Of a stretch of DNA of 64,000 bases, positions 5,055-61,914 are shown in pieces (position 1 is the first letter of the stretch; each line of letters begins with the position of its first letter). The stretch lies in contig JAWMAR010000879.1 in assembly GCA_036785375.1 (NCBI GenBank), positions 372,001 through 436,000 of the forward strand. The letters run 5' to 3'. Below the pieces are notes generated by a model. That model had not been told where the DNA came from. It searched no databases and saw only the letters and a list, made by a program, of their open reading frames with translations. The DNA comes from Leucoraja ocellata (taxonomy: Eukaryota). The position numbers were made by a program, and so were the translations under genes.

Positions 5055-5750
5055 AATTTTAAGGGTGTGGGTATCATTGACAAGATTAGCATTCCGAATT
5101 GCCCTTGAGAAGGTAGTAATGAGACAACCTCCAGAATCACTGCAGTCATTCTTTTGAAGTTACTCCCAGAGAACTACTAGGTAGGACATCTCAGGGTTTC
5201 GACTCAATATCGCTAAAGGAACAGCATTGTATTTCCAAGTCGGACGGCGTGTGACTTGGAGGTGACTGCATGTTTATGTTCCTGTGTGCCTGCTGCCCTT
5301 TTGCTTTGTAGTGGATGTCTCATATTTGGGAGACACAAAATGCTGGAGTAACTCAGCGGGTGAGGGAGCATATCTGGAGAGAAGGAATGGGCGATGTTTC
5401 GGGTCGAGACCCTTCTTCAGACATAAATTTGGAAGATGCAGACTAAATAGCCTATGCAAGTATCGTCAGTAGGTTTCAAAGATGCAACACTGGAGCTACG
5501 ATGCATTGGTGGTGGAGAAGAAAAATATTTAGTGTGGTGGATAGATGTCATTCAAGTGAACCACTTTTCCATGGGCAGTGTCAAGCTTCTTGTGTGTTAT
5601 TAATGCAATGCTTGACCCAGCAAATGACAGTATTCCATCATGCCCATCAAGCATTCCATCAGCTTGTGTTTGGCAGAAAGGCTTGGGTCTCAGGAGTTGA
5701 ACCACCTACGACACGATATCTAGTCTCTGGTAGCCTTTGTCCAGCTGGTC
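5055..5750 (-). mobile_element. Unassigned LINE-like remnant, interrupted by a Penelope-derived insert
   Basis: Resembles the 3' end of a LINE ORF2 on the minus strand. The family cannot be assigned by eye. Confidence 0.35.
5393..5420 (-). ncRNA. Minimal hammerhead-ribozyme-like motif in a short Penelope-derived repeat (about 5330-5422)
   Basis: Minus strand reads CTGAAGA-A-GGGTCTCGACCC-GAAA-CATC: intact core, AUC triplet. Confidence 0.55.
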
Positions 5751-5858
5751 CAGTTAGGGTGTTGAGGAACTGCAGATGCTGGTTTAAAACGACGACAGAC
5801 AGTTAAAGCTGGAGTAACTCAGCAGGTCAGACAGAATCTCTGGAGAAAAGGAATAGGT

Positions 5859-5886
5859 GAAGTTTCGGGTTGAGACCCTTCCTCAG
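5859..5886 (-). ncRNA. Minimal hammerhead-like motif in a short Penelope-derived repeat (about 5760-5888)
   Basis: Minus strand reads CTGAGGA-A-GGGTCTCAACCC-GAAA-CTTC. The insert is flanked by the direct repeat CCAGTTAGG. Confidence 0.5.
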
Positions 5887-7655
5887 ACCAGTTAGGTTGT
5901 TAGGATATTGATCATGGGTTTCTCAGTAAATGCAATGCTCTTAAATACCAAGGATAGGTAGTTTGAATCTCTGCTAGAAATTATTACACAAATATTACTG
6001 CCAGTTATTGGCCCTTGCCTGAATGTTGTCTATGTCTCATTGCATGCAAACTAGGCATTTGTTTAGTGCCAATCTGCATCACAGTGTTGAGGAAATCACA
6101 TCGTAAACTCTAAATGCAGCATTATAATTTGAAAACTTACAATTGTAAAAAAAATGGTTATGTTGGAGTTGAATTTTCAAAGGGGTTTTCCAAATCTACC
6201 CTGAAACTGTGCAGCTAAACACAATTAAAGTTTGTCTTGCATACAAAAATGATTCTTGATTTTCCTGATGAAAATAGTCATAGTCATACAGCCATGAAAC
6301 CAACCCTTTGGCCTAACTCATCTATGTCGACCAAGATGCCGTTCTAAGCTAGTCCCATTTGCCCATGTTCGACCCATATCCCTCTATATGTATACCTATC
6401 CAAATGAATTTAAAATGTTGTTATTATACCTGCCTCAATAACTTCCTCTAGCAGCCCATTCCACATACATACCACGCTCAGTGTGAGAAAGCTGCCCCTC
6501 AGGTTTTTGTTAAATCTTTCTCCTCTACCTTAAACCTAAGCCCTCTCGTTGTTGATTCCCCTGGGAAAAAAATCTATGTGCATTCATCCTGTCTATGCTC
6601 CACACGACTTTATACACCTCGAAAAGACCATCATTTGGTCTCCAACATTCCAAGGAATAAAGTCCTAGAATGCCCAGCCTCTCCCTATAACTCAGGGCCT
6701 TGAGCCCTGGCAACATTCTCGTAAATCCTTTCTGTATTCTTTCCAGTTTAATTGCATATTTCCTTTAACAGTGACCAAAACTGTACATCTATACATAACT
6801 TAAACTTTAATCTTGTGCTCTTCCAGTTTGTGTGGTTTTTCTATTTGCGCAAAAACAGTACATGATAGCGCTATGAATTTTTGTCACCTTACTCACCATT
6901 CTCCTGTGCTGCAAATGCACCAAGTTTTGTTCCAATTGATGGAATATTTTAAAAGTTATTAAGGTTTAAAAATCTTAAAAACTGCACATGCGCAGATTGG
7001 TCTCTTCTCCTGTCAATCAGCACCCTGGAGATTGGTCTCCTGTCAGTCAATGCCGTGGCCGGGATGGCGACGCCCCTTCCTGCACCGCGACCTCTCCCGC
7101 CTCATTCACAAACTCCTCCCTCCCCTCCTCGCAGTAACTTGTCTACCGTCTCCCCCACCACCGGCGGCGGTGGCCGCGGGGGGGGGGGGGTTCAGTGGAA
7201 GCCCTGGTCCCGTCTCTCTCTCCCTCACTCACCCCTCTCCCCCGCCCGCCCTCTGTGGCAATGGCGGTGCCGTCTACCCATCCCCCCGGGTGAATGGCTG
7301 CGACCGTCCGTCTCCTCCGCCACTTCCGCTGCGGTAACTCACCCTCACGGCCCTTTCGGAGGAGATCTCCACCAGCTCATCGAGACTCATAGTGCCCACT
7401 GTGACAAACACCGACTCCATTTCTTCACCCCCCCCCACCCCCCCGCAGCCTGGCAGCAGCAGCAGCAGCGAGCAGGCAGGCGGGTGAGTGGGGCGGGGGC
7501 GGGGATGGGCCGAGGGGGCAGCAGCAGGCGGGCAGGGCGGGGACGAGCCGAGCGGCAGCAGAGGGCGGTCAGGCAGTACAGGGATGGGCCGAACAGCGGC
7601 TGAGCCGGAGTAGGCAGGGGGAGGGAGGGAGAGTCTGTTACAGAGTGGCCGAGCA

Positions 7656-7789
7656 NNNNNNNNNNNNNNNNNNNNNNNNNNNNNNNNNNNNNNNNNNNNN
7701 NNNNNNNNNNNNNNNNNNNNNNNNNNNNNNNNNNNNNNNNNNNNNNNNNNNNNNNNNNNNNNNNNNNNNNNNNNNNNNNNNNNNNNNNN
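7656..7789. other. Assembly gap (N run)
   Basis: Run of N. Confidence 1.
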
Positions 7790-14489: not shown

Positions 14490-14985
14490 GGTAGGATCAC
14501 TGCCTTACAGCGCCAGAGACCCGGGTTCGATCCTGCTGTATGTACAAAGTTTGTACGGAGTTCTCCCCATGACCAGCATGGGTTTTCTTTGAGATCTTCG
14601 CTTTCCTCCAAAGGCGTATAGGTTTGTAGGTTAATTGACAGTGCAAATGTATAAATTGTCCCTAGTGTGTGCCGGGTAGTGTTAATGAGTGGGGATCGCT
14701 GGTCGGTGTGGACTCGGTGGATTGAAGGACCTGTTTCCATGCTGTATTTGTAAAACAAAAAACTAAAAGATGGACACAAAGTGCTGGAGTAACTCAACGG
14801 GTCAAGTCGCATCTCTGGACGTGTTGGGCCAGAACCCTTCGGACTCTGTGAGTCTCAAGAAGGATTCTGACCCAAAACATCACCCATCCTTTTTCTCCAG
14901 AGATGCTGCCTGACCTGCTGAGTTACTCCAGCACTTTGCGTCCAACTTCGGTATTACCCAGCATCTACAGTTCCTTCCTACATAT
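14490..14985 (+). mobile_element. HE1-like SINE (about 14490-14765) followed by an inverted pair of Penelope-derived repeats (about 14770-14985)
   Basis: B box GGGTTCGATCC at about 14523. Then GACACAAAGTGCTGGAGTAACTCA...TGAGTTACTCCAGCACTTTGCGTC inverted arms around a degenerate hammerhead core (14854-14881). Confidence 0.7.
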
Positions 14986-15117: not shown

Positions 15118-16731
15118 CAATGCCCTCCATAATGTTTGGGACAAAGACCCATCATTTATTTATTTGCCTCTGTACACAATTTGAGATTTGTAATTGAAAA
15201 AAATTACATGCTGTTAAAGTGCCCTTTGTCAGATTTTAATAAAGGCCATTTTTATATATTTTGTTTTCCCCATGTAGAAATGACAACAGTGTTTATACAT
15301 AGTCCCCCCCCCCACAGGTTTGTAATTGCTCAGGTGTGTTTAATTGCCTCCTTCAGGCAGGAAAAAGAGAGCTCATAGCACCGAGTCTTTCCTCCAGTCT
15401 TTCCATCACCTTTGGAAACTTTTATTGCTGTTTATCAACATGAGGACCAAAGTTGTGCCAATTAAAATCAAAGAAGCCATTATAAGACTGAGAAACAAGA
15501 ATAAAACTGTTAGACGCATCAGCCAAACCTCAGGCTTACCAAAATCAACTGTTTTGAACATAATTAAGAAGAAAGAGAGCACTGGTGAGCTTACTAATCG
15601 CAAAGGGACTGCCAGGCCAAGGAAGATCTCCACAGCTGATGGCAGAAGAATTCTCTCTATAATAAAGAAAAATCCCCAAACACCTGTCGGACAGATCAGA
15701 AACACTCTTCATGAGTCAGGTGTGGATTTGTCAATGACCACTGTATGCAGAAGACTTCATGAACAGAAATACAGAGGCTACACTGCAAGATGCAAACCAC
15801 TGGTTAGCTGCAAAAATAGGATGGCCAGGTTACAGTTTGCCAAGAAGTACTTAAAAGAGCAACCACAGTTCTGGAAAAAGGTCTTGTGGACAAATGAGAC
15901 GAAGATTAACATATCAGAGTGATGGCAAGAACAAAGTATGGAGGAGAGAAGGAACTGCCCAAGATCCAAAGCATCCCACCTCATCTGTGAAACACGGTGG
16001 TGGGGGTGTTATGACCTGACCATGTCTAGCTGCTGAAGGTACTGGCTCACTTCAGTGATGATACAACTGCTGATGGTAGTAGCATAATGAATTCTGAAGT
16101 GTATAGACACATCCTATCTGCTCAAGTTCAAACAAATGCCTCAAAACTCATTGGCCGGCAGTTCATTCTACAGGAAGACAATGATCCCAAACATACTGCT
16201 AATGCAACAAAGGAGTTTTTCCAAAGAGATAGGTGTTAATGGTTGATGCATGAGTGGCCAAGTCAATCGCCCAATCTAAACCCAATTGAGCATGCCTTTT
16301 ATATGCTGAAGAAAAAACTGAAGGGGACTAGCCCCCAAAATAAGCATTAGCTAAAGATGGCTGCAATACAAGCCTGGCAGAGCATCACCAGAGAAGACAC
16401 CCAACAACTGGTGATGTCCATGAATCGCAGACTTCAAGCAGTCATTGCATGCAAAGGAAATGCAACAAAATACTAAATATGACTACTTTCATTGACATTA
16501 CATTGCTGTGTCCCAAACATTATGGTGCCCTGAAATGGGGGGACTATGTATAAACACTGCTGTAATTTCTACATGGTGAAACCAAAATGTATAAAAGTAG
16601 CCTTTATTAAAATCTGACAATGTGCACTTTAACCATATGTGATTTTTTTCTATTCCAAATCTCAAATTGTGGATTACAGAGGCAAATAAATAAATGATGG
16701 GTCTTTGCCCAAAACATTGTGGAGGGCACTG
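15118..16731 (+). mobile_element. Tc1/mariner DNA transposon with long (about 195 bp) TIRs
   Basis: TA|CAATGCCCTCCATAATGTTTGGGACAAAGACCC... mirrors ...GGGTCTTTGCCCAAAACATTGTGGAGGGCACTG. Encodes an internal transposase. Confidence 0.93.
15440..16476 (+). pseudogene. Tc1 transposase pseudogene
   Basis: MRTKVVPIKIKEAIIRL...ARPRKIS (paired HTH region), VLWTNETK (first catalytic D changed to N), LQEDNDPKH, WPSQSPNLNPIEH, then KGNATKY*. Contains frameshifts and stops. Confidence 0.9.
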
Positions 16732-19426: not shown

Positions 19427-19975
<549 letters not shown>

Positions 19976-26018: not shown

Positions 26019-27364
26019 TCAATGTGTGTCCCTCTAAAGGCTGCATTGCTGACTCCAAGTGGATCCAAGGCAAGGATGAGATTCAATAAATTGATCTACT
26101 TGGTAATTCTACTACTTGTGTATCTTGGGTCCTTACTGAAGGGGCAGCACTGAAACGCTATTTCAGAGGATATTGATGCCACTTACAACAAAAAAATTCC
26201 ACATAACTGCTATAACTACCACTCAGTAAATACAACCTTGCAATGAGGGACCGAGCTTCCCTCCTCCAACAATGGCTCCTTTGACAAACAGGATCTTGCT
26301 TAATGGGAGGAGCTTATGCCTTAAAGCTACAGTGATGACAGACTCTAAAAATCAGATGGTATTTGAGGTTTTTACCCAACTCTTGCCCATAATTGTGTCA
26401 CATTCCCTTGGAAATTCAGGGTCTAGGTATTCTGCTTTCAAACCCTTTTTAAAAATTTGGTTCAAATTTTATCTCAGTTACTCAACCTTAATCCTTTTGG
26501 TTTAATATTCAATTTCATATGAAATAACTCTTAAAGCCAGCATTTGAATATCCATTAACAACCCCAGATAACACTGTTTATCTTAGAACTAAACATTTGA
26601 AAGTAAACTCAGATGAACCATAGCATTGCACCACCTCAGGTAACACGTTTCCTTTCTAGCTTTCTAACTGGCAAAACGTTTTCTTTGACTCCTAGATATT
26701 TGGTATAAATTGTGAAACAAATTCCTTAAAAACTGACTTGGATTATTACAATTCTATGGGAAAATAGGGACAAAGCTCTCACATTTGTACATTTTTAATA
26801 CAATTTATTCAATGAGACTGGGAGATCACTGAACTTGTTTCAATTATTCATTCTGATCTGCACTTTGCATGATTTGCGGGTTATTTTAGTCATAGATATA
26901 TGGATTTCGTGTCAAATTTAGGTGTAGAATTGTGCTACGTTTTAGTAGCAGCAAAACTCAGTCCCTAACATTATAAACAGCAAATTATTTTCCATTTACT
27001 GTACTTTAATAAAATAAGTTTTCAAAGAAAATCAAAAATACACCTTTTCATAATGCCCTTATACTCATGCATAGCAGTGTCCAAGGAACATTACTTAAAT
27101 GTATGGAGAGGCTCAAACAAAACGAGAACATTTAATCTCTAATCAACTTTCCTGCAGTTGCTGCAACATAGTGTTATTGCAAGGCTTGGGCACTGACCAA
27201 GAGGTCTCTATTTTAAGGAATACTTTTCATAAAGCTGGCGAAGATGGATGCTTTACATTTAATTGCGCCAGGCAACTTTACCTGCCACTTGCATTTGTTC
27301 CCTGCCCCACTCTTTGTTAATGTCACAGCTCTTTCAAACTAGTTCAACACCATGGCTCCATGGT

Positions 27365-39745: not shown

Positions 39746-40587
39746 GGAACTGCAGATACTGGTTTAAACCAAAGATGACCAAACTCAAAAAGCTGGAGCA
39801 ACTGAACGGGTCAGGCATCATCTCTGGAGAAAAGGAATAGGTGATGTTTCGGGTCGAGACCCTTCTTCAGACAGAGAGTCAGCGGAAAGGGAAACAAGAG
39901 ATATAGATGGTGATATAGAAAGATATAGAACAAATTAATGAAAGATATGCAAAAAAGTAACGATGATAAAGGAAACAGGCCATTGTTAGCTGTGGGCTGG
40001 GTGAAAATGAGTCACAGACAATGAGACTCAACAAGACGACTTTGAAGTTAGTACAACGGGTGAGTGAGGGATGTTCAACACCTTATATTTTGCTTGGGCA
40101 CCATACAACCCAACAGTATGACTATTGATTTCTCTAACGGGAAGTAATCCTTGCATTCCCTCTCTCTCTATCCCACCCCGACCCAAGTCATACGAGCTTC
40201 AAAATCGTCTTGTGTAAGAAAGAACTGCAGTTGCTGGTTTAAACCAGATAGACACAAAAAGCTGGAGCAACTCAGCGGGACGGGCAACATCTCTGGAGAG
40301 AAGGAATGGGTGACGTTTTGGGTCGAGTCCTTTCTTGAGTCTCATTGTCTGTAACTCGTTTCCACCTTGCCCACAGCTAACAATGGTCTGTTCCTTTATC
40401 ATCATTACTTTTGTGCATATCTTACACTCATTTGTTCTATGTCACTCTATATCTGTCTATATCTCTTGTTTCCCTTTCCCCGCACTCTCAGTCTGAAGAA
40501 GTGTCTCGACCTGAAACATCACCTATTCCTTGTCTCCAGAGATATTATCTGGCCTGCTGAGTTACTCTAGCTTTTTGCGTCTATCTT
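39746..40587. mobile_element. Penelope-like insertion with inverted pLTRs
   Basis: About 300-bp inverted arms with hammerhead cores at 39843-39870 (-) and 40493-40520 (+). Central GIY-YIG C-terminus QHLIFCLGTIQPNSMTIDFSN (about 40076-40138, +). TSD CAGCAACTATACAA (39732-39745) / CAGCAACTGTACAA (40588-40601). A third short copy is nested at about 40212-40339. Confidence 0.85.
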
Positions 40588-41450
40588 CAGCAACTGTACA
40601 ATATATTTCAGGTTTCCATCATCTTAGAGTAAACCCAAATGCTTTTAGCTCTTAATTCTGCAACACAGGGAAAAAGGACTGTGACTTCACCCTATCTATT
40701 CCTCTCATGATTGTTTACATCCGTACAAGAACATCCCTCATCCTCCTGCACTCCGAGGAATAAAATTCTAGCCTGCCCAGCTTTTCCCGATAACTCAGGT
40801 TCTACAGAGCTGTCAATATTCTCATAAAAATCTTCAGTGTAGTCTTTTCAGCTTAATGAAATCCGTCCTGTAGCAGGGTGACAGAAATGAACACAGTACT
40901 CCAAGTGTGACCTCACCAACTGCACAACTTGTACAACTTTAACATAATGTCCCAACTTCTACACTCAATTCCTCGACTGAAGGCCAGCATGCCAAAAGCC
41001 TTCTTCATCATCACACTATCTATTTGCGTTGCCACTTTCAAGGAACTATGTACTTGTATTCCTAGATCTCTCGGCTCTACAATACTCCCCAGGGCCATAC
41101 TATTCACTGTGAAGGTTGTGGCCTGGTTTGACTTCTGAAAAATGCAACACCACATACTTATCTAAATTCAACACCATTTACAATTTCTCGGTGATGAATT
41201 ATGTCATTCTGGATAACCATCTTCACTGTCTACGATACTGCCTCTTTTAATGTCACTAAAAACTTACTAAACATGTCATGTACATTTTCAACCAAAGCAC
41301 TCATATAACTGACAGTCGGCAGTATGTCATCTATCTCTGATGCCTGAGGCATACCAGGCAAGCCAGACAATATACAATACACGTCGAGCCCTGAAGCTTA
41401 CCTCTAGTCACAAGCCTCAAACCTGAAAAATGACCCCCTTCCAACACCAC

Positions 41451-41662
41451 GTGTTGCTTAAGAAAGAACTGCAGATGCTGGAAAAATCGAAGGTAGACAA
41501 AAAAGCTGGAGAAACTCAGCGGGTGAGGCAGCATCTATGGAGCGAAGGAATAGGTGATGTTTCGGGTCGAGACCCTTCTTCAGACCTTGACTCGAAACGT
41601 CACTTATTCCTTCGCTCCATAGATGCTGCCTCACTCGCTGAGTTTCTCCAGTACTTTTGTCT
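41451..41662. mobile_element. Fold-back Penelope-derived insert
   Basis: About 75-bp inverted arms around a hammerhead core (41556-41583, -). Perfect 15-bp TSD CCCTTCCAACACCAC (41436-41450 and 41663-41677). Confidence 0.8.
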
Positions 41663-42900
41663 CCCTTCCAACACCACATTGTGTTAACTATCACTAAGCC
41701 AATTCATTATCCAGTTAGCTTTCCCTGGATCCCTTGCTACCTAATCTTCCAAAGCAGCCTACGTTGCAGAACCTTATCAAAGGTCTTGTTGGCATCCATA
41801 TCATCTATATCAACCATATGACCTTTCCTCATCAACCCTCTTGGTTACTTCCTCAAAAAACTAATTCAAATTCATCTCCCACACATAAAGTCAGATTCAG
41901 ATTCAGATTCAACTTTAATTGTCATTGTCAGTGTACAGTACAGTGACAACGAACGAATAGGTGACGTTTCATGTCGAGACCCTTCTTCAGACCTTGACCC
42001 GAAACGTCACCTATTCCTTCGCTCCATAGATGCTGCCTCACCCGCTGAGTTTCTCCAGCATTTTTGTCTCCCTTCCAATACCACATTGTGTTAACTATCA
42101 CTAAGCCAATTCAGTATCCAGTTAGCTTTCCCTGGATGCTGTCATGCTGACAATACTTAATTAACCACTGTCTTTCCAAATGCGTGTATATCATCTCCCT
42201 CAGGATCCTCTCCTGTAACTTTCCAACCGTAGATGTTAAGTTTACTGATCTATAATTCTGATCTATAAATCCTAGGTTTTTCTTTGCAGCCCTTCTTAAT
42301 CAGATGCATGGCGTTAGCCACTCTCCAGTCTTCCAGCATATCTCAGCCAGTGCTCCTGCAATTTCTTGTCTAGCTTCCCACGTATCTGATGGATATACCT
42401 GATCAGGTATATCCGTCCCATGGATATACCTGATCAGGTTCAGGAGATTTATCTACCTTTGTGTATTTTAGGACATTGTGTTCTCCAGAGATGCTGCCTG
42501 ACCCACTGAGTTACTCCAGCATTTTGTATCCACCTTTTATCCCTCCTGATTTCCTCCTGAAGTATACGCCTCAATCCCCTTTGCTCCATCGGGAATACAC
42601 TTGATCCCAGCTGCGTGTACCTGACCCATGCCTCATTCTTCTTTCTGATCAAAGCCTCAATTTCTCTCCTCATCCAGGGTTGCTTACTTCTTCCTGCCTT
42701 GCCCTTCACTCTAACAAGTTCATGCATACTTCAAATTCTCACTATTACAATTTTAAAATTATCCCACTTTCCTGTCATTCCTTTGTTCACACACAATCTA
42801 TTCCAAACAAGTTTTGCAAGTTCCAGTCTAATACCATCAAAGTTGGCCTTGTGCCATTTTGAAACTTTAACCTGTGGATCCGCCTGTCCTCATTCATAGT

Positions 42901-42928
42901 CTGAAGAAGGGTCTCGACCCGAAACGTC
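42901..42928 (+). ncRNA. Minimal hammerhead ribozyme motif (consensus copy) in a 96-bp insert (42899-42994)
   Basis: CTGAAGAAGGGTCTCGACCCGAAACGTC. TSD TGTCCTCATTCATA (42885-42898) / TGTCCTTATTCATA (42995-43008). Confidence 0.65.
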
Positions 42929-44811
42929 ACCCATTCCTTCTCTCCAGAGATGCTGCCTGTCCCACTGAGTTACTCCAGCATTTTGTGTCTACCTTGTCCT
43001 TATTCATAACTATTTTAAAGTTAATAGAATTCTGTAGACTGGTGCTTGCCCACTGACAAGTCAGCATCTTGCCCTGCCCATTTTCCTAAGAAAAGGCAAG
43101 CTTTGCCCTCTCCCTTGTAGGGCCAGTCATATATTGCATGAGGAAACTTTCTTGAACATACTTGCCAAATTCCCACCATCTAAACCTTTGGCACGATGGC
43201 GGTCCCAGTGTATATTTGGAAATTTAAATTCATCTACTAGATAGCTTTGTTGGTCTTCCACCTTTACCGCCACCTCTCTCTTCCCTGTAGCACCTGTATT
43301 CTGGAACAATAAGCTGCCAGTCCTGTCCATCACTTACCCAGGTATCCATAATGGCTATAACATCCCAGTCACACGTACCTATCCACATCCTGAGTTCATC
43401 CTGCACTTCATACAGGGGAGATACTCAGGGCCACTGGAGATTTCTCTGACCTCTCACATCCTGCAGGAGTAGCTGAACAATGGGCTAATTGCCATCCTAA
43501 TTGCACCATACGAGGAGGTGGCGAATAAAGGGCCTTAGCTATTTTACCTTCTCCTCCCCCCAATCTGCTTGCTGAAGCCTCTCCAGCCAAAGCCTCAACA
43601 CTTACCCTCAAACACATCACCTCAACACATAGCCTCTACCAAATTGTAGTCACTTTTTACCATCAGAGCTGGATTTACTACTGTTCCATAAAATCAAAAC
43701 AAACGTCAGCATTGTCACAGTAATTCCAGTGATCTGGAATTCCTATTTTGGATTAACATCAGGCCAAATGTTGGAGTGCGAGCTTCCTTCCATCAATCCA
43801 TTTCAAGCTATAAATGAAATTAAGCGATTTTCCATTCTGAATCCGCATTTGGTCTTGGCACATGCTGAGCAACATAGGCCCAGAGCTTCATTTTATATTT
43901 ATGATGAAACTATCAGCACGCTTAGAATTTCTGTGCATGCAAGATTAAACATGGAGAAGCCAAAATTTATTTCAGTGATGCAAACCTCTTGCAGCCTTCT
44001 CTCTGCAACCAAGGGGTAATTTTTAATTTCATGCTCAGTAAAATGCCTAATATATTTGCTAGGAGTCCTATTTAAGGGGCTGTCCCACTGCGGCGACCTA
44101 ATTAGCGAGTTTAGAAGAGTTTGCCCTTGACTCATACTTGCAGCGTGGTCGACACGAGGACCAAGGAGGTCTTTGTAACTCTCCTTTATGCTGGAGAGTA
44201 ATCCCTGCATCAGGGCCAGATTTAGATGAAGAGAGGCCCTAGGCTATTTCACTTGTGAGCCCCCCCCTCCCAATCCCCCACCCCCACGACTAGAGGACCA
44301 TGATTACCAGACAGTGACAGTGTGACACTTTTAGATCCTACTGTATGTTGTCATTAAACAGTTGGTTTTAAAATTCATATTGGATTCACCGTATAGCGGG
44401 CAATGCCTTACCTGGAACGCCGTTTGAAGCTCCGGAGTGTTGGGCCTGCTGCTTCAACATCAGATCTGTGGTTTGCGGAGCTCCCAGCCTCACGCCGTGC
44501 TGATTTCAACATCGTGGAGCCCTGGGTTCCCTTTGCCGAGGGCCGCCAACGCGAATCTCCACCCAGCTCAGCCTGTGGACTTTGGGAGCCGCGGTCTCCG
44601 GTAGGAAGTGGCCGATTCGGAAGTCCAAGCCGCTGAGAATGTTCTTCCATTCCGACGTCGGATGGTGATCCCAAATTTCACTGCATACCTCAAATGCATC
44701 GGACATTGTCTCAATACCCCTTACTGGGATTAATCTAGCCTTCCTCTCTCATCAATTGGTAGATGCATTTCAAAGTCTGTGGGGTCATGGTCCAAGGATA
44801 AGTAGGAGGAG

Positions 44812-45840: not shown

Positions 45841-45849
45841 CACATGTAC

Positions 45850-47446
45850 AGATGTCTGAGAGTTGGCACGTAGCCTCAGCCTTGAAGAGATCAGCGCGCC
45901 AGACTACCACGGCACCTCCCTTGCCGGCGGGTTTGTTAACCCAGTCTGGGTTGTTGCGGAGTGAGTCGATGGCTGTACGTTCAGGGGGGTGGGGGGGGGT
46001 GGGGGGGAGAGGTTACAGTGAGACAGGGGAGTGGAGAAGTTGAAGCGGTTGATGTCCCGCCGGCAGTTTAAAATAAAAAGGTCTAAAGCCGGAACATGAC
46101 CATGAGTGGGGGTCCAAGAAGAGGGGGTCCCTTGGAGACGGGAGAAAGGGTCATCAATGGGGGGCAAGGATTCCTTCCCATGGAAGAACGCTGTGAGGCG
46201 GATGCGACGGAAGAAGAGCTCCAAATCGTGGCGGGCTCGGAACTCATTGAGGTGGGGACGGAGGGGGACAAAGGTGAGGCGTCTGCTGAGGACAGACCGT
46301 TCAGTACCTGAGAGGGGGAGGTCAGGGGATGGTGAACACACAACAAGGATGGGGGTTAGGGCCGGAGGAAGGCAGGCGAGTGGACTGAGGCCAAGGCGAT
46401 GTCTGGTGGGGGGGTGGTGGGTGGTCAGGGGGGAGGGGGGTATGAGGACTGTAGTGTGGGTGGGGAAGAGCTGGGGTCACGTGGTTTGGGGGGGATGGGG
46501 AAGACCCAGTGGAACAGCCACTGATGTTACCAGGGTTGGGGACACTGGCACAAGGACCCAGCGCAGTCAAACCCAGGGGAGTTGGAGTCTGCAGCGTGGA
46601 AACATCAGGCCCGGTGCTGAGTCCAGGATTCAGATAAGACGACAGCTGCGGTGTGCTGGAGAGCAGTGGAGCGCAAGGGTCAGTGGAGTCAATGACGGAG
46701 TCAAATGGAGTCGTGTCCGGTTCAGCGGGCGAAGCGTGGGAGGTCCCGGTGGGCGGATGGTCGGTGGGGCGGCGAGGTTCGGTGGGCCCGGTGAAGCGGC
46801 AAGGTGAATAGGCCCTGGTGCGGCGGCGAGGTTCGTTGGACCGTAGTGTGGCGGCGAGGTTCGGTGGGCCCGGTGCGGCAGCCCCGGTGAGGCGGCGAGG
46901 TTCGGTGGGCCCAGTACGGCGGCGAGGTTCGGTGGGCCCGGTGCGGCAGCGAGGTTCGATGGGCCCGGTGCAGCAGCAATGTTCGATGGGCCCAGTGCAG
47001 CGGCGATGTTCGTTGGGCCCGGTGCAGCAGCTATGGTCGATGGGCCCGGTGCGGCGGCGATGTTCGCCGGGCCTGGGGCGGCGGCGATGTTTGTTTGGGC
47101 CCAGTGCGGCGGCGACGTTCGATGGGCCCGGTGCAGCAGCTATGGTCGATGGGCCCGGTGCGGCGGCGATGTTCGCCGGGCCTGGGGCGGCGGCGATGTT
47201 TGATGGGCCCGGTGCGGCGGCGATGTTCGATGGGCCCAGTGAGGTGGCGATGTTTGATGGGCCCGGAGTGGCGGCGATGTTCGATGGGCCCAGTGAGGCG
47301 GCGATGTTCGATGGGCCCAGTGAGGTGGCGATGTTCGATGGGCCCGGAGTGGCGGCGATGTTCGCCGGGCCTGGGGCGGCGGCGATGTTCGATTGGCCCG
47401 GAGTGGCGGCGATGTTCGATGGGCCCAGTGCGGCGGCAATGTTCAA
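45850..47446 (-). mobile_element. Penelope-like element ORF N-terminal/RT-proximal fragment
   Basis: LSGTERSVLSRRLTFVP...DLELFFRRIRLTAFF and, after a frameshift, SLRNNPDWVNKPAGKGGAVVVW (the Penelope KPADKGGAVV motif). Confidence 0.8.
46763..47445. repeat. GC-rich minisatellite, 27-bp unit (about 25 degenerate copies)
   Basis: Unit approximately GGTGCGGCGGCGATGTTCGATGGGCCC. It explains the long repetitive ORFs in several frames (NIAAAPGPS; AAAMFDGPG). Confidence 0.95.
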
Positions 47447-48460
47447 TGAGTGGGTAGGCCCTCAATCAAAAATCCAAGCAAATTCCTCTCCGACAATGAA
47501 TATAAACCTCACCTGCATTTTAATCCTGCCCCCCCCGCCACACACCACCATAGCCTCTGGAATCGCAAGCACAGCACTGATGGTAGGTTTTGTAACAACA
47601 CCACTATGCCAAAAGTTTAATACACCTTGGCGGATTGAGGCTGAGGCCCCCCTAGATCTCGAAGCCCTAAGCTGAAGCTTATGAAGCTTATACGTAAATC
47701 CAGCCCAGCCCCGCATACCCGAGGCCTCAGCTAGGTTGCAGCGTATTTTTCAACATGCTGAAAAATGTCCGCGAGTAAAAAAAGGTCGCCATGGAAAAAA
47801 ATCGATATTTTTTTACTCGTGGGTTTAGTCGAGGTAGGTCGGCATGTTAATCGTAGCTAATCAAAGGCAATCAAAGGTAATCGAGGGTAGTCAAAGGTAA
47901 GGCTTGTTGAGAAAAAAAAGGTAAAGGGGCTGTCCCACTGTAGCGACAAAATCTGCAAGTTTTGCCCTCAACTTAAACTCACAGCATGGTCGACACGTGG
48001 TCCTCAGAGGTCCAATGAGGTCACTGGAACTGTCCTTCAAGCTCGGGGGAAGTTTGGTCAAGAAAATGTTCTCAGCATGTTGAAAAATTTTCCGCGAGTA
48101 AGAATTGGTCGGCATGGTTCTTTTGAACTCGTAGTGCTGTGGAGTGGGGTCGCTATGTAGTTATAGGCAATCGAGGGCAGCCGTAGGCAATCTCCTTCGC
48201 TGACCAGGCATTTTAATTGGTTCATTGGAGTTTCAGGACCAAGGAAAACCGACCGGTAGGTAAAATGCCCGACAAACTTTATTAAAGTTGGCTGTCTTCT
48301 TAAAGGTGGCTCCACTCCTTCTCCCCCTTCTCTGCCCCCTCCCGCCCCCCCCCCCCCCCCCCCTCCGCGCTCTCTAAAGGACTTACCGTACATTGTGCAG
48401 CCGTCTTTTACCTTCCTGTTCATCGCGGGTGTGAATTTCAGACAGCGCTCCCCCGCTTTC

Positions 48461-52224: not shown

Positions 52225-53821
52225 CAGTGCATTGTACTCAGAAAGTATTCAGACCCCTTCACTTTTTCCACATTTTGTTACGTTACAGCCTTATTCTAAA
52301 ATGGATTAAAAAATTGTTTTTATCATCAATCTACACACTATACCCCAGAATGAAGAAGCGACAACAGGTGTTTAGAAATGTTTGCAAAGTAATTAAAAAG
52401 AAATAAATGAAATATCACATTACATAAGTATTCAATCCCTTTACTCAGTACTTTGTTGAGGCACCTTTGGCAGCGATTACAGCCTCAAGTCTTCTTGGAT
52501 ATGACGCTACAAGCTTGGCACACCTGCATTTGGGTAATTTCTCCCATTTTTCTCTGCAGATCCTCTCAAGCTCTGTCAGGTTGGATGGAGAGCGTTGATT
52601 CACAGCTATTTTCAGTTCCCTCCAGAGATGTTCGATCGGGTTCAAGTCCGGGCTCTGGCTGGGCCACTCAAGGACATTCACAGACTTGTCACAAAGCCAC
52701 TCCTGCGTTATCTTGGCTGTGTGCTCAGGGTCGTTGTCCTGTTGGATGGTGAATCTCCACCCCAGTCTGAGGTCCAGAACTATCTGGAGCAGGTTTTCAT
52801 CAAGGATCTCTCTGTACTTTGCTCCATTCATCTTTGCCTCGATCCTGACTAGTCTCCCAGTTCCTGCCGCTGAAAAACATCCCCTCAGCATGATGCTGCC
52901 ACCACCATGCTTCACCGTAGGTATGGTATTGGCCAGGTGATGAGCAGTGCCTTGTTTCCTCCAGACGTGACGCTTGGCATTCAGGTCAAAGTTCAATCTT
53001 GGTTTCATCAGACCAGAGAATCTTGTTTCTCAAGCCTTTTGGCAAACTCCAAGTGGGCTGTCATGTGCTTTTTACTGAGGAGTGGCTTCCGTCTGGCCAC
53101 TCTACCATAAAGGCCTGATTGGTGGAGTGCTGCAGATATAGTTGTTCTTCTGGAAGGTTCTCCCATCTCCACAGAGAAACTCTGGAACTCTGTCAGAGTG
53201 ACCATCGGGTTCTTGGTCACCTCTCTGACCAAGGCCCTTCTCCCCGATTGCTCAGTTTGGCCGGGCGGCCAGCTCTATGAAGAGTCCTGGTGGTTCCAAA
53301 GTTCTTCCATTTAAGAATGACGGAGGACACTGTGCTCTTCTGGACCAGCAATGCTGCAGAAATTGTTTTATACCCTTCCCCAGATCTGTGTCTCGACACA
53401 ATCCTGGCTCGGAGGCCTGTGGACAATTCACTTCATTGCTTGGTTTTTGCTCTGACATGCACTGTCAACTGTGGGACCTTATATAGACAGGTGTGTGCCT
53501 TTCCAAAATCATGTCCAATCAATTTAATTTACCACTGGTGCACTCCAATCACGTTGTAGAAACATTTCAAGGATGATCAATGGAAACATGAGGAACCTAA
53601 GCTCAATTTTGAGTGTCGTAGCAAAGGGTCTGAATGCTTATGTAAATGTGATATTTCAGTTATTTCTTTTTAATTACTTTGCAAAAATTTCTAAACCAGT
53701 CCTGGGGTATATTTTGTCGATTGATGATAAAAAAAAATAATTTAATCCATTTTAAAATAAGGCTATAACATAACAAAATGTGGAAAAAGTGAAGGGGTCT
53801 GAATACTTTGTGAATTCACTG
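52225..53821 (-). mobile_element. Tc1/mariner DNA transposon (second family), long TIRs, TA TSD
   Basis: TA|CAGTGCATT..TCAGAAAGTATTCAGACCCCTTCACTTTTTCCACATTTTG mirrors ...GAAGGGGTCTGAATACTTTGTGAATTCACTG|TA. Confidence 0.93.
52445..53436 (-). pseudogene. Tc1 transposase pseudogene (DD34E triad retained)
   Basis: RIVSRHRSGEGYKTIS...[23 protein letters not shown]-(34)-NPIEH, then AKGASTKY*. Split across frames. Confidence 0.92.
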
Positions 53822-55454
53822 TATGTATCTCACCGCACTTGTGACTGTGACAATAAACCAAACTGTGACTTGACTTGGTGATTAATCGTGCTCACATCGG
53901 TGTTTACTGAAAAATTCATAAAGTGAAATATTGAAATATTCATTTTATCAGATTGATATGTTCCTAAATAGAAGTTACAGAACTAGAAGGCTAAATAATT
54001 TATGTACAAAATTAATCTTTAGTATCAGTATTAAAATGACTTACATTATCTGCCTTTTGAATTTTCTGTCCCGTCCTAGCTCAAACCTCTTTCTGCATCT
54101 CTTTTAAAACCAATGGACATTTATTTGACAGTTATTCCTTCCCTGGTATGAGAGTGTTGCTTTTTCTGGACTACAAGATATGAGAGTCTGCCAATATTAA
54201 TTCATCATCTGCACGAACTAAAGTGTCCAGTGATGATCATGAGTCACAAGTAATGCAGTAACTGCATAATATAGCAGTCCGATGCATAAATTCTAGTAGT
54301 TACGGTAAACAGAACTACTTCAAATAAATTACTCTCTTGATAGCCCCGCTGTTAATTGTGGGCAGTGAATTTTTGATTCCAGAGGAGTGAATTTACTGAT
54401 TTGTACATTCAGAAACAAGGTAGCACGACAATTATAACAGAAAGGATCCCCACCCACTGAATTCTGCACCAAACCCATCTTTTCACTGGAGAGTTGGCAA
54501 AGTTCGCCAATTCAGAATCCAAAGGTGTCACGGAGTCAGCAACGTAATTCACAGTGTGGCCTGGCCTTCCTACCAGATGCACAGAACAAGGGAGTGCTTC
54601 TGGGATCAGAAGGAGCCTCATCTGTTTTTTTTCTTACTTCCCCAATGGATCAGAATGTTTCTCTCTGGAACGCAATTTCCCTCCCCATTATTCTCCCCCA
54701 CAGCTCCCCAAACCCCTTCACCACATGTTTGTCCCTTCAACGATGGTTGACGGCTTCCTGTTTGCTCCCGCTTTCCACTCTGCCGCCACTTCCTTCCTGT
54801 TTCCTGCAGGCAGCTGGTTTGCAGCAAGAAGGAAAGGGCCTTGCATTAGCATTGCTAACTCTCCTTTAAGTTCTGCGCCTGATCTTTGCAGGTTTGTTAT
54901 CAATGATTATGAACATGTAATTTTTGAGTTCTTTGATCTGAGAAGAGGGCTGCTGATTTGATATGAAAGATTATGGGAACAATATTGGCAAGGGAAGAAT
55001 TACTCCTGTCTGTTTTAAAAATTACCAAACATTTGTTGAAACCAAGACATGTTGCACCATCTCCTGTCCAACCCTATCGACTCCGGAAATACTTCAGTCT
55101 TAGTGGTGATTTGCATGACTGGTTTGGACCTTCACCAAGTTTTTGTAATTATGCCAATGGTAACAACACAAAAATAATCATATATTATATTGGGATTCCA
55201 TTCAAGAGGATCAACTACTCTAAATAAAAACAGCTGCTGTCATATATAAATGTAATACTAATCTTTCAGTTCTCAGATATAATAAATGGAAAAAGAACGT
55301 TATTGGTTTGTCTTTCATGCACTTAAAACAAAATCTTGCTGACAATTCATACAGAGGTGTTATAGGGCCTTGGTGTGACCATGCCAAGAGTATTATGTTG
55401 AATATAGGACTCCTAACTGAGAACTGAGAAAGGTTTCCCTTTCCCCTGATTAGT

Positions 55455-55482
55455 CTGAAGAAGGGTCTCGACCTGAAACGTC
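55455..55482 (+). ncRNA. Minimal hammerhead ribozyme motif
   Basis: CTGAAGAAGGGTCTCGACCTGAAACGTC (G-U pair at the base of helix II). Confidence 0.6.
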
Positions 55483-56087
55483 ACCCATTCCTTCTCTCCA
55501 AAGATGCTGCCTGTCCCGCTGAGTTACTCCTGCATTTTGTGCCAATTTTCTGAGAAATTAATATACTTGCTACAAAGGAAAATACAACAAACATTTGCCG
55601 GCCTGTGCTTGGTTTGTCAATTAGATTCGCAGAAGTCAGTATCCAGATTTTGCGGAGGAGAAAAGATACAAAGTGCTGGAGTACTTGATGGAGTACCATG
55701 TTTGCCTCACCCAGCGGGTGAGGCAAACATGGATCGGTGATGTTTCGGGTCAGGACCTTTGAAAAATTGAGAAGGGCCCCCTCTCAAAAAATCATCTATC
55801 CATGTTTTCCAGAAGTTGACCCGTTGAGTTACTCCAATACTTTGTGTCTTTTTTTGTAAACCAGCACCTGAAGTTCCTTGTTTCTCAGTTTTAAACAGCG
55901 ATCGAGAACAAGCTGAAGGATCAAATGACTACTTTTCAATAATCTTCATCAAGTATTTCATCAAAAATCTTTATTTGTCATTATGTGCCAGATTTGAACC
56001 GAAACAATGAAAGTCTTGCTTGCCACAGGTTAACAGCAACAACAACTAGATATGTTATAAATTATCAGTTATTCTCAATACACCAGA

Positions 56088-56742: not shown

Positions 56743-59384
56743 GAAGGTAGAGTTGTGGTGCAGGGTGGGGTAAGAGCTGATGGTTGATGAGGAGAAGCTG
56801 TTCTTGAACCTTGAGGTAATGCTTATCAGGCTCCTCTACCTTGTTCCTGATGGTAGCAGGCGGGGATCTTCTACTATAGTAGTGAGAGTTTGAAGATGCC
56901 ACCGAAAACTCCAGCCAGTTGGTCCACACAGGTTTAGAGAGCGCGGCCAGGTACATCATATTCCTGACTTTGGGATTGTACCTGATGGAACGTCTCTGCG
57001 GAGTCAGAATGTGCAGGTTATTCAACCTTTGATCTGATTTTGTGCCTTTAGTGATGCTTCGGATTAATATTGACCCCACAATATTCATGAAAACGTCTCT
57101 CACAGTTCTGCTGAATGGTCATTGACCTGAAGCTTTAATTCTGCATCTGCCTTCCAAAAATGCTACCTAACCTGTTGAGTACTTCCAGCATTTTCTCTTT
57201 TTATTCCATGTATTTACATTGGAGACTTAGTACTGGTAAAACATGCTGGTGAATGTTGAGGGTTAGGCATTGTTTAGGCACTAAACTAAACACTTAGGCT
57301 GTCATCGTTTGGCACTGATATGGTATTTTCTGCCAAACATCTGCCCCGAGGAACTGTCACAACATCCTCAGGCTAAAAGCTTGCCAGTACTTGAAAGACA
57401 TAGCACTATGATAATGAAATAATGTGATATCCCAAAAGGAACAAAACAGGTACAAATGGCCTTTTGTGTTGTATCCTTTAATAGGTCTATCATGCAAATA
57501 TAATGTTGCCCATAATCAGGGCATGCTAAAATTAAAAGGAATAGGTGATGTTTCGGGTCGAGACACTTCTTCACTCGACCAGAAACATCAACTATTCCTT
57601 TTCTCCAGATGCTGTCTGACCTGTTGAGTTGCTCCTGCATTTTGTGTCTATCTTCGAAGTTAACCAGCACCTGCAGTTCCTTCCCACACCTTCTAAAATT
57701 AAACTCCATTTGGTTCCTCCGCTGTGATGAGACAAAACTCTACCTACCTGGGACTGGAGCATTTGGAGTTAATTTCGGTAATTTGCTAAAACCAAACTAT
57801 TGTTGAATGTTCAAAATATTTTCCTTATGTCTGATGCACCCTTGTTCCTTACAGCATTCTTCATCCTTTCCTTCAATAAAACCACACATCAATTTACGTC
57901 ATCAAATTAAGGTTTGGTGTTTTTGCAGTTTTAGCACAATTCATAAGCACATTCTGTCCAGTTAAAATCAAGTTAGGCTTGAAAATGAAAATCTGAATTA
58001 AAAATGTTGTTCGGCTGGCTATGTGTGAGTTCTTTGTCACAAGGGTTCATATGTGTTACTGAAATAGTATTGATTTTGGACAATGTGAAAACAGTTAACA
58101 ATGGACAAGGAAGCTATCAGCTTAAATATGTTTTTGGACTGAGCTATTCATAAACAAATTAAATTGAAAGTGCACAAGCAGGTTTTCTTTCAGGCCTACT
58201 AAATGAGTAGGAGCAGGAAGTGGGCAGGGAATTACAAAGCTTGTAATTAGAGAATATATTATGGTCTACAATTGAGTAAATCACATGTAAAATTTCACGT
58301 GCACTGAATGCAAGGGCCAATTCTGGTTCTATCTTTCCCCTTGAACGCCTTTGTTTGCCCTGAGAGATGAGAAGGCTATGACACAACAGTAGTGTGGAAT
58401 GAAAAAAAATAGCAAACACATGAATTCATGGTGAGAAGATGAGCAAATCCAACAAACAATACCTTCCTTGCAGTTCACGTCCATGGTAGCATTCAGCCAC
58501 CCCCGCACTAACACTTCCTGTCAGGCTCAAAGAATGCCAAGTTCTACTTCAATGAACGCTCCAGTCAATTGCTGGAAAACACCAGCCGATAAACTGCTGA
58601 ACTTGCCAGCAGTGACGAATGCACGTTAACATTCTCTAATTATCATTTACCATAACATCCATCAGCTCTCTCACACTGTTAAACATCACCCTCTGCTGGC
58701 AGTTATTGTTTGTCATTGACTCTCGGGATGGGAAAATAATTAATTTTAAACCTACTATTGAGAAAATGCAAACAAGAAAAATAAACGTGATACGATGTCC
58801 TATCCTAATTCCATTCTGGCTCCTAGAGGGAACCTACCTCCATTCTGGCTGGGAGTCAACATTCAGTGCTCATCCAAAAGTTATTTCTCACCAGCAGGGA
58901 GGGGGGCTGACACCTCTTCCTGCCTGGCCCCTTCACAGAGACTCACACCCACACCTAAAATAATCTCCTGCATTTGCTTTTATGCGAGTCCTCACTGAAA
59001 GCAGTGTTACACATGATTACATTTGTAAAGTAGGAAATTAGAGATGGTAGTGTTTGGAAGTCTTTAAATATACTGGATCAGCAGGAGCTATGTTTGGCCC
59101 AGTGCCCACGGTACCTAGGCCGGACGTAGAGAGCCTCAATCAAGTGAAAGCTCTTTATTTAGAAGGCAGAGCAAGATCTCCGTGCCAAAGGCCTCCTGCT
59201 GACTGACTACAACACATGCAAGCCTGGGGGCAGAGCCCCACTTTCTGTCAAAGATGGGAGCTTCTTCAGAGGAGACCACTCTGCCCATCCTGCCCATGCT
59301 GGTTGAATAAGAGCTCAACCACGTTATAGCAGCATTCATAGTACCACTGCCCACAGCTCTTTATCAACTTTCAAGTAGAAAAAA

Positions 59385-60105
59385 ATGAATGAATGAATGG
59401 AGTTTATTGGCCAAGTATTCACATACAAGGAATTTGCCTTGGTGCTCCGCTCGCAAGTGACAACATGACATACAGTGACAGTTAGGAATTACACATAAAA
59501 CATAAAAAATAAAACATTATTGATTAAACATGCAAATTAAATAAAATACCAGAGCAAAAGGAGGCTACAGATTTTTGGTTATTGAGTAGAGCTACTACTC
59601 GTGGAAAAAAGCTGTTTTTATGTCTGGCCGAGACAGCTTTGACAGTCTGGAGTCGCCTTTCAGAGGAAAGTGATTCAAAGAATTTGTGGCCAGGGTGAGA
59701 GGGGCCAGAGATGATCTTACCCGTTCGTTTCCTGGCCCTTGCAGTGTACAGTTCATCAATGGAGGGAAGGCTGCAGCCAATAACCTTCTCAGTTGATCGG
59801 ACGATTCGCTGCAGCCTCCAAGTGTCGTGCTTGGTGGCTGAGCCAAACCAGACCATGATGGAGAAGGTGAGGACAGACTCTACAATGGCCGTATAGAATT
59901 GGGCCATCATTGCCTGTGGCAGATTGTGCTTCCTCAGCTGCCGCAGAATGTACATCCTTTGTTGTGCCTTTTGTCTGTGGAGTCGATGGTGGCCCCCCAT
60001 TTAAGGTCCTTGGAGATGATGGTTCCCAGGAACTTAAAAGACTCCACAGACTGCGGTGTTGTTGATGGTGAGTGGGGTGAGGGGAGGAGGAACTCTCCTA
60101 AAGTC
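59385..60105 (-). mobile_element. Rex1/Babar-type LINE 3' fragment
   Basis: KAQQRMYILRQLRKHNLPQAMMAQFYTAIVESVLTFSIMVWFG...RHKNSFFP, with a (CATT)n tail. Confidence 0.85.
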
Positions 60106-60954
60106 TACTCCTCACGCTCCTTTTCACAGTTTGGAATATATTTCCCAATGACCTGGTGATTTATCTATTTTTTTTAAAGACGATATGTCTTAATCTGTCC
60201 TTTTTTGCTCTAATCCATCTAACATCTCTTGCATTGACATAACAACCTGCTTCTTTGAAGACAATGCATCCCCCACACAGGTCACCTTTCACGTCCCTAA
60301 TAAACACTACTCTTCCTTCGTATCTTCTTGCACTTTATTTACTTCTTTGGATTATTTTTGATTTTACTTGCCCATATTTTTTAACCTTTTGCTTTTCTAA
60401 TTTCTATTTTAATTATACCCTTGGAATGTCTGTGTTCTTCTGAACTTCCCGTGATAAGCGTTATGGACTGGCATCAGCTTCCCTTTCTTGTCTTATCCTT
60501 TTATTTATGAATTATGCCATCTAGGGCAGTCCCACTCTTTTTCTTTGTGTGAACATTTTTACCCATAACAACTATAATCTCCTTAAATGCCTCACATTTT
60601 TCTAAGGCCAATTAACTTTCAAGCAGCTGTTTCCAACCACTTTTGATTTATTACATCTCAGTCTAGTACAATTGGCTTCACTCCAATTCGGCACCTTTTC
60701 TCCTATTTTATCCTTGGCCATTTCCTTAACTATTCTATATCTGACAAAATGTTATTCACTGCCACAAAATTGTTCTCCAAATGATACTCTATTTTCTCTA
60801 TTCTTTTGTTTCAAAACCTCTCATTGATTTTCTGCCTTTCTCCTAATCTGTTTGTATTTCTCCTAATCTGAACCGTTCATCCCATCCACCTGCTGCTAGT
60901 TTAAACTGTCTCGTGTGTCATTAGTAAATATACTCATGAGAAGATTGATCCTAA

Positions 60955-61382
60955 AGGGCCAGTCCCACTGTACGAGGTAATTCACAAATTCTCCTGTGTT
61001 TTCCCCTGATTCGAACTCGCAGAATAGACAATAGACAATAGGTGCAGGAGTAGGCCATTTGGCCCTTCGAGCCAGCACCGCCATTCAATGTGATCATGGC
61101 TAATCATCCCCAATCAGTACCCCGTTCCTGCCTTCTCCCCATATCCCCTGACTCCGGAATTTTTAAGAGCCCTATCTAGCTCTCTCTTGAAAGCATCCAG
61201 AGAATTCCACAGACTCCACAGTATGTTCGTAACGAGTCGTAGGAGGCCGTAGGAGTTCGTGGATGTTTCGTAGCGGCTCGTTATGCTAACCGTAGGTACT
61301 CGGGGCATCAGGTAAGTCGGGATGAAAAATGTCCACGAGTAAAAAAAATATTTGAGATGACTCGTACAGTGGGACAGGCCCG
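60955..61382. mobile_element. Harbinger-like MITE with a nested CR1 tail (about 61025-61220)
   Basis: TAA|AGGGCCAGTCCCACTGTACGAG ... CTCGTACAGTGGGACAGGCCCG|TAA. Confidence 0.7.
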
Positions 61383-61886
61383 TAATCCTATTGAGGTGCA
61401 ATATGTTTGCACACCCCTTCCCCAGGCACTTTCAACAACAGTTCACATTGCTTTAAGTAATAAAAATAAGTAAAAATGACCAAGAATTGTAAATTGTGGG
61501 ACATAAAAACATTAACAAGTTAAAAGCAGCAAAATAAATAGATAGGTAGGTCAATAAATAAATAAATCACATACGTTTTCACCTCCTAATCCCTAGGCCA
61601 GGAATCCATATTCAAATTAATGGATACTGCGATCCTCCACCTAACTTGACCTAATTGGGTTAGTTGGGAAAGAAACCAATTCCACATTGTAAAGGTGGGA
61701 AATTCCAACATGGACGGCTTTTCTCTGGAGTTCAGCAATGGATCAGAGCAAGTGTAACATCATTTCTAATTTAGCACATTTAAGTTAACAATGAGTACAC
61801 ACATCCAGGATGTCATTTCTGGGTAGACACAAAATGCTGGATTAACTCAGCGGGATAGGCAACATCTCTGAAGAGAAGGAATGGGT

Positions 61887-61914
61887 GACGTTTCGGGTCG
61901 AGACCTTTCTTCAG
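61887..61914 (-). ncRNA. Minimal hammerhead ribozyme motif
   Basis: Minus strand reads CTGAAGAAAGGTCTCGACCCGAAACGTC. Confidence 0.55.

Follow-up and report, generated by a model that had tools for sequence, protein, structure and literature searches.

Why does a single stretch of skate genome hold the same hammerhead ribozyme motif again and again, and do these motifs cut RNA? The stretch in question comprises 64,000 nucleotides of Leucoraja ocellata (GenBank assembly GCA_036785375.1, contig JAWMAR010000879.1, positions 372,001 to 436,000 of the forward strand) and is called the window throughout the paper; coordinates given without a contig are window positions. A first-pass annotation made from the letters alone had noticed about 18 minimal hammerhead motifs on both strands and had assigned them to Penelope-derived repeats. 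According to our analysis the repeats are very probably 5'-truncated insertions of a Neptune-type Penelope-like element (PLE), which carries a minimal type I hammerhead in its pseudo-long terminal repeat (pLTR). Their template was likely uncleaved RNA, and they probably have no ribozyme activity.

First, the motif itself was searched. Two exact copies of the 28-mer hammerhead motif were found in the window, 7 copies at up to 1 mismatch and 15 at up to 6 mismatches. An nhmmer profile built from 10 copies yielded 27 family matches, 19 of them spanning the hammerhead, versus 0 matches in the reversed window and in a reversed genomic sample, so that the motif is real and not a matter of chance. 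All nine copies initially listed as intact or near-intact fitted the 28-mer at 0-3 mismatches, but core, 4-bp helix II and ACGU palindrome were all kept only at 27365, 42901 and 55455 (3 of the 19 window copies). The palindrome was altered to ACAT at 5393, 39843, 40493 and 41556 and to ACTT at 5859, a helix II pair was broken at 61887 and 40493, and helix II was broken at 41963. Every degenerate or split copy of the first-pass annotation was recovered, and the profile added three partial copies at 25691, 42481 and 57113. An Rfam scan returned no hammerhead family at E<=1 and only hairpin-driven miRNA matches. The motif forms the 5' third of a unit of about 97 nt, or about 130 nt with an optional tail. 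Unit positions are counted from the core nucleotide C3 (position 0), and the predicted cut lies just before +28. The following copies were delimited, with UTR standing for untranslated region.

5326-5422, minus strand: pLTR unit of about 97 nt, motif 5393-5420, palindrome ACAT.
5765-5888, minus strand: pLTR unit with tail, motif 5859-5886 (ACTT), flanking 14-bp duplication with 1 mismatch.
14768-14947, both strands: decayed head-to-head pair (14768-14840 minus, 14852-14947 plus), core broken.
27363-27414, plus strand: unit without its 3' half, exact motif 27365-27392, predicted cut after 27392.
28424-28558, minus strand: decayed unit with tail, 11-bp duplication with 1 mismatch.
33772-33924, both strands: head-to-head pair without CUGA box.
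34529-35446, minus strand: native 3' UTR and pLTR of a GIY-YIG remnant, motif (34625/35101) split within helix II by the insert 34643-35100.
35445-35540, minus strand: short unit nested within the GIY-YIG remnant, 11-bp duplication; this copy, at 35510, is a later insertion.
39747-39971, minus strand: 3' UTR and pLTR copy, motif 39843-39870 (ACAT).
40206-40341, minus strand: decayed unit with tail, motif 40312-40339.
40394-40590, plus strand: 3' UTR and pLTR, motif 40493-40520, helix II mismatch, ACAT.
41450-41667, both strands: head-to-head pair, motif 41556-41583 (minus).
41950-42074, both strands: local duplicate of the 41450-41667 pair with shortened minus arm, motif 41963-41990.
42899-42995, plus strand: cleanest short unit, starting at G(-2), exact motif 42901-42928, predicted cut after 42928, 14-bp duplication with 1 mismatch.
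55433-55546, plus strand: unit with about 20 nt of 3' UTR, motif 55455-55482 intact, G-U at 10.1-11.1.
55664-55849, both strands: old head-to-head pair.
57535-57692, both strands: head-to-head pair, motif remnant 57547-57574 (minus).
61822-61916, minus strand: short unit, motif 61887-61914, G10.1 changed to A.

Which element brought these repeats into the window? The physical link of the motif to GIY-YIG remnants, claimed at two sites, was found by tblastn at both (E 4e-32; E 0.007). The Penelope origin also held, as the motif sits in the pLTRs of intact elements encoding a reverse transcriptase (RT) and a GIY-YIG domain, and remnants of their open reading frame (ORF) lie in the window itself, one of them with an insert nearby.

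35321-36036, minus strand: broken C-terminal part of a PLE ORF (Cys linker and GIY-YIG), tblastn E 4e-32 (35321-35923) and 6e-10.
40070-40213, plus strand: last GIY-YIG codons and start of the 3' UTR, part of the plus-strand copy at 40493, tblastn E 0.007 (40070-40135), blastn E 9e-26.
45845-46939, minus strand: broken N-terminal, RT-side remnant of a PLE ORF, tblastn E 2e-24 and 1e-16.
34643-35100: 458-bp insert within helix II of the native pLTR, bounded by terminal inverted repeats, target duplication of 8 bp.

A Pfam search with the 43-aa GIY-YIG piece of the window gave no relevant match. For a cleaner genomic copy of the GIY-YIG region the five best matches were ray and shark proteins at 58-66% identity, which by itself points to a cartilaginous fish, most likely a skate or ray, as the probable host. 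No hammerhead match adjoining the remnant at 45845-46939 was found by nhmmer. This N-terminal remnant holds a low-complexity tandem repeat encoding AAAPGPSNI-like units (45845-47461, minus strand), and intact PLE ORFs have a comparable Pro/Gly-rich repeat region of variable length. The 458-bp insert, which we take to be hAT-like, has relatives at other loci.

A genome search with a full-length relative was scored for 50 of 119,116 candidates, and 47 of these were without a stop within the match. In 4 of 11 fetched near-full-length elements (L046, L047, L050, L052) the motif was present as direct repeats 3,902-3,973 nt apart, flanking the ORF. This ORF of 1,230 aa (L050:3340-7029 in one of the four) contains an RT with a YIDD motif, a Cx4CxxC linker just past aa 1095 and, at its C-terminus, a GIY-YIG domain. 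It was 44-54% identical to many RT plus GIY-YIG proteins, while its Pfam matches (RVT_1 E 1e-6, GIY-YIG E 0.014) were weak, lying slightly or clearly below the Pfam cut-offs. Hallmarks of endonuclease-bearing (EN+) PLEs were all present, namely pLTR direct repeats, inverted 5' copies and the optional tail of 30-40 nt. It is the CX2-5CxxC linker alone that points to a Neptune-type parent. Since this linker between RT and EN is also shared with Nematis in the accessible part of Craig et al. 2021 (PMC8557442), the element may belong to the Neptune or the Nematis clade. The young family with intact ORFs carries a GUU triplet. At another locus (L056, G000 C27:2810500-2820499) two long, intact-looking PLE ORFs stand head-to-head, without an upstream pLTR between them.

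How large is the family? Exact core 31-mers were counted genome-wide, giving 15,546 of the GUC type and 25,986 of the GUU type (41,532 in all), and the downstream 34-mer of the unit occurred 78,410 times; the reversed controls gave 0. In 69 ten-kb stretches nhmmer found 289 family matches, 181 spanning the hammerhead. Extrapolation led to a total of about 0.9 million copies (bootstrap 0.70-1.15 million); since each contig contributed a single stretch, chosen at a round coordinate, the sample is not truly random. Several C1 insertions were found twice with identical flanks, so that duplicated or haplotype segments in the assembly inflate the copy counts; a 98% copy of window 35200-36000 was also found on another contig (L012, G000 C3:2046074-2046874). 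Minimal hammerhead counts of about 4,000 in the coelacanth and about 9,000 in Xenopus are given in the accessible part of Cervera and de la Pena 2014 (PMC4209133), and the copy number here is far above them.

Are these copies ribozymes? The minimal type I hammerhead anatomy noticed at first, in which A9 is followed by an extra nucleotide and helix III is palindromic, was borne out by descriptor matches. The core boxes CUGANGA and GAAA are present with a NUH triplet, GUC in the window families and GUU in the intact-ORF family. A general hammerhead descriptor gave 42 matches in a 689-kb sample and 0 in its reverse. All fetched loci, which were enriched for exact cores, held 222 distinct descriptor matches. 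The extra nucleotide, 4-bp helix II and tetraloop were present in 216 of these; the extra nucleotide lies between A9 and G10.1, and G10.1-C11.1 closes helix II. The palindrome at 15.2-16.2 was CG in 170 and CA or TG, as by CpG decay, in 44. Helix I had 2 bp in 138 of the 222, and 2 bp in the intact masters too. Decay was followed in 115 near-full-length sampled copies, with copies not reaching both ends of the model excluded. The core was kept in 52, core plus helix II in 31, and the palindrome as well in 22. G12 was retained in 72% of the sampled copies versus 75-81% at CpG positions outside the motif. This is ordinary CpG decay, and the dispersed copies are thus not protected. The claim of a very large ribozyme family is therefore supported for the very high copy number and unsupported for function, given 22 of 115 complete copies and a G12 decaying at the CpG rate. 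No compensatory pair changes in helices I and II were seen among the subfamilies, which are too close for a strong test; their helix changes were one-sided, U-A/U-G, with 80/14 at 10.4-11.4 and 57/31 at 2.1-1.1.

Folding predictions gave helix II a probability of 0.001 in the 97-nt unit and of 0.06-0.17 in longer contexts. In the model a pyrimidine tract further downstream engages the core and leaves helix II unpaired: the core purines +6 to +11 are predicted to pair with +35 to +40, a tract kept in both families, and this tract is a possible off-switch for the ribozyme. The active-type dimer with helices II and III reached -12.7 to -13.3 kcal/mol versus -21 to -25 kcal/mol for the best cofold. 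Head-to-head copies were predicted to form long hairpins, and the pair at 41491-41667 folded into a single long one (-127 to -144 kcal/mol). Judged by their letters, most window copies are missing some of the motif and are unlikely to cut.

The ends of the copies tell how they were made. The junction sample consisted of 74 young core-anchored copies, 33 of them short (5' end within 5 nt of C3) and 41 long. Their 3' ends fell at +91-99 in 40 copies and at +129-134 in 20, and 17 of the 33 short copies began at exactly -2. A second sample of 95 copies was anchored downstream of the motif; its loci span 97 of the 100 places listed first, duplicated insertions were counted as well, and 8 duplicated short rows were reassigned by hand. 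Here 33 5' ends lay at -7 to 0 (16 at -2), 29 at +1 to +46 and 33 further upstream. Around one third to one half of the young copies are therefore units of about 95 or 130 nt starting at most 7 nt from the core, mostly with G(-2). An exact junction duplication of 8-16 bp was found for 20 of 33 short versus 0 of 41 long copies, and 9 of the 33 short copies had a head-to-head partner with the junction at or near the motif edge. Short and long copies shared the same body variants and had the tail in 11 of 33 versus 13 of 41 cases, so that short copies look like by-products of the same masters. Genome-wide counts of 5' ends, made with unit sequence preceded by three non-native flanking bases and normalised, were about 5,900 at -2, 730 at +4, 290 at +25, 1,500 at +28 and 390 at +31. 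A cap-derived extra G before G(-2) was considered; the preceding base was G in 41, T in 39 and C in 20 of the first 100 matches listed (counted by hand), which is unconvincing given CpG loss and inversion junctions.

These ends suggest a course of events. Reverse transcription is most likely primed internally on uncleaved RNA, and the two 3' ends (about +94-96 and about +130-131) may correspond to its internal start sites, as in the accessible part of Frangieh et al. 2024 (PMC11167929). Many cDNAs would extend only as far as the hammerhead's 5' edge before being inserted. Any cleavage might be confined to a tandem master transcript, in which two motifs would pair via the ACGU palindrome, probably with the help of protein. 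In the weakest step of this scheme, the short units would arise by run-off, as cDNAs of an RNA with its 5' end at the motif edge. We tentatively regard the 95/130-nt units, which number in the hundreds of thousands, as "strong-stop-like" cDNAs: the PLE transcript would start at the hammerhead edge, and RT would start 95 or 130 nt downstream and run off the 5' end of the RNA before insertion of the cDNA. We take the sequence from -5 to +1 to fit the initiator consensus; by analogy with Drosophila virilis, it alternatively fits a 3' splice site. In the accessible parts of the respective papers, a rotifer pLTR is described as having an Inr-like element (PMC3846280), and helix I marks the end of an intron in D. 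virilis (PMC4209133).

A competing account of the sharp start, applying to the short units only, is a stop of the RT or a joining hotspot caused by RNA structure or by the near-palindrome at -5 to +3. The nine head-to-head short copies with their junction at or near this site speak for it, and palindromic 2-4-mers elsewhere in the unit also serve as inversion axes. However, short copies are mostly plain insertions with target duplications, and predicted stems would be unwound from the 3' side before RT reaches -2. We hold such a stop for quite possible, if somewhat short of probable. Between the two, run-off at the RNA 5' end is favoured, with a structural or palindrome-driven stop about as likely.

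Three raw RNA runs labelled as a relative were inspected. The unit is abundant in them, with both strands represented in the single-cell runs, and 51-87% of the aligned reads continue into unlike sequence, as expected for units that ride as passengers in host transcripts. At the cut site and at -2/-3 no pile-up of read starts or ends was seen, which in fragmented multi-mapping reads is no evidence either way. Splicing to the CAG ahead of the motif was set aside, as it appeared in none of the joints listed (15 of 136 and 15 of 338). Away from the cut site, a 59-base go-back joint with 7 extra letters (L017:2315-2373) was covered by 453 reads in RNA run X24 and 92 in RNA run X22 and was absent from the X15 contigs; it is probably one expressed genomic duplication in that species.

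We are aware of four observations that weigh against dead insertions copied from uncleaved RNA by a Neptune-type PLE. The RNA reads, for which most joints were unlisted, showed neither a transcript start nor a splice junction at -2/-3. Most window copies belong to older GUC subfamilies, and the best GIY-YIG matches of these were short or broken frames with no intact master seen among them. Conservation of non-CpG core positions was 0.95 versus 0.86 downstream (P 0.002), a difference inflated by a sample picked to reach the core; the higher constancy fits selection in the master lineages. Finally, apparent 5' ends at the cut site +28 had a raw count of 271 (the normalised value of about 1,500 given above), 4-5 times that of their neighbours. 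Of the first 100 listed +28 ends, 34 were preceded by TAG, which is an inversion axis, and 36 by TCG or TCA. A control GC inversion axis at +41 gave 110 ends, and the six +28 loci inspected comprised two clear internal deletions and one true 5' end with a 10-bp duplication. We discounted the excess because it consists mostly of inversion axes and of a TCG/TCA class that includes internal deletions. Cleaved RNA as the main template was rejected on the same grounds. Copies run across the uncut site and have no clear excess of 5' ends at it, and the contribution of cleaved RNA is at most minor.

That the unit of about 95 nt is an independent non-autonomous element, retrozyme-like or like a short interspersed nuclear element (SINE), amplified by the PLE enzyme with the hammerhead kept as needed, appears unlikely. 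The sharp 5' edge at helix I, the target duplications, one unit inside a GIY-YIG gene and the 33 short forms among 74 young copies would suit it. But the body variants common to short and long copies argue against an independent SINE, no tandem arrays were seen in the window, the position of the 5' edge is spread over 0-7 nt and accompanied by microhomology or additional bases, and the core decays neutrally. Still less likely is a ribozyme role of the dispersed motifs in host RNA, where neighbouring copies would pair into dimers and cleave pre-mRNAs: the 42 descriptor matches per 689 kb with 0 reversed, the abundance of the unit in RNA reads labelled as a relative and the modestly stable predicted dimer fold (helices II and III, -12.7 kcal/mol) are outweighed by 3 intact copies of 19 with the nearest intact same-strand pair 12.5 kb apart, a helix I of 2 bp in 138 of 222 with helix II predicted unpaired in the unit, alternative cofolds modelled as 8-11 kcal/mol more stable than the active dimer, antisense copies that would form long duplexes and the low activity of minimal hammerheads in the accessible part of PMC4209133.

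The window holds further features. The last coding exon of a RUNX gene lies at 19427-19975 on the plus strand (Pfam RunxI E 1e-52; terminal VWRPY), and the nearest same-strand hammerhead copy upstream of it is the one at 14854 with its broken core. A minus-strand frame at about 7280-7450, beside an N-masked stretch, gave no Pfam match and resembles, as we assume, the start of ALG13. Tc1-type transposase fragments were found at 15344-15922 (plus) and 52445-53029 (minus), and several RT fragments elsewhere in the window are presumably CR1-like.

What does the family offer? A young and apparently still intact PLE family, represented by tens of thousands of nearly identical insertions, reveals poorly known steps of PLE retrotransposition in its junctions, namely the sites of priming, the role of uncleaved RNA, the joining of copies head-to-head and the sharpness of the 5' end, and it supplies an intact ORF for in vitro work on the role of the hammerhead. 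If run-off is true, the genome would preserve, to the exact base, where the RNA of a vertebrate PLE begins and where its reverse transcription is primed, and would show that copying leaves the ribozyme uncut. Our literature search found no description of PLE hammerheads in chondrichthyans or of a hotspot for 5' ends where the motif starts; Lunse et al. 2017, some supplements and Repbase/Dfam lay outside this search and may hold the family. The one of two supplement files of Cervera and de la Pena that was accessible has no shark or skate entry (PMC4209133).

The comparison with known systems relies on the accessible parts of the cited papers. The motif is the known minimal hammerhead ribozyme (min-HHR) of PLE pLTRs described by Cervera and de la Pena (2014, PMC4209133). 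It shares with those of metazoan PLEs the type I core CUGANGA/GAAA, the extra nucleotide 9/10.1, G10.1-C11.1 and the palindromic 15.2-16.2, as well as the position in both pLTRs, mostly solitary dispersed copies and opposite-strand pairs. Helix II has 4 bp here versus 7-8 bp in Schistosoma, and helix I has 2 bp versus 4-5 bp in other min-HHR, with 2 bp in D. virilis as well. In contrast to published min-HHR, the sequence is homogeneous, with at least 41,532 exact cores.

In the Anolis element Poseidon_Ac (Frangieh et al. 2024, PMC11167929) the main substrate is RNA that has not been cleaved, and the hammerhead needs protein in order to cut. As there, the hammerhead lies in the pLTR upstream of two 3' ends with a tail of 30-40 nt between them, and insertions come from uncleaved RNA; Poseidon_Ac also lacks RNA-seq ends at the cut site. 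The family differs in its first ORF ATG, which is downstream of the tail and not in stem II, in its Neptune-type Cys linker and in its sharp 5' end at the motif, a trait not described in the accessible part of that paper. With Neptune-clade EN+ PLEs (Craig et al. 2021, PMC8557442) it has in common the RT, the CX2-5CxxC linker and the C-terminal GIY-YIG domain, together with partial tandems, inverted 5'-truncated copies and the optional tail. Non-LTR retrozymes, reported in one chondrichthyan genome (PMC7229834; bioRxiv 10.64898/2026.07.22.740005), are likewise non-coding, carry a type I hammerhead and are kin to PLE pLTRs. They form tandem arrays of at least two hammerhead units, however, whereas the window copies are solitary or head-to-head; a retrozyme array, i.e. 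tandem repeats with at least two consecutive hammerhead units, was rejected for these solitary or inverted copies. As a ribozyme the find is ordinary, PLE hammerheads being known across animals. What is unusual here is the scale, together with the unexplained sharp 5' edge.

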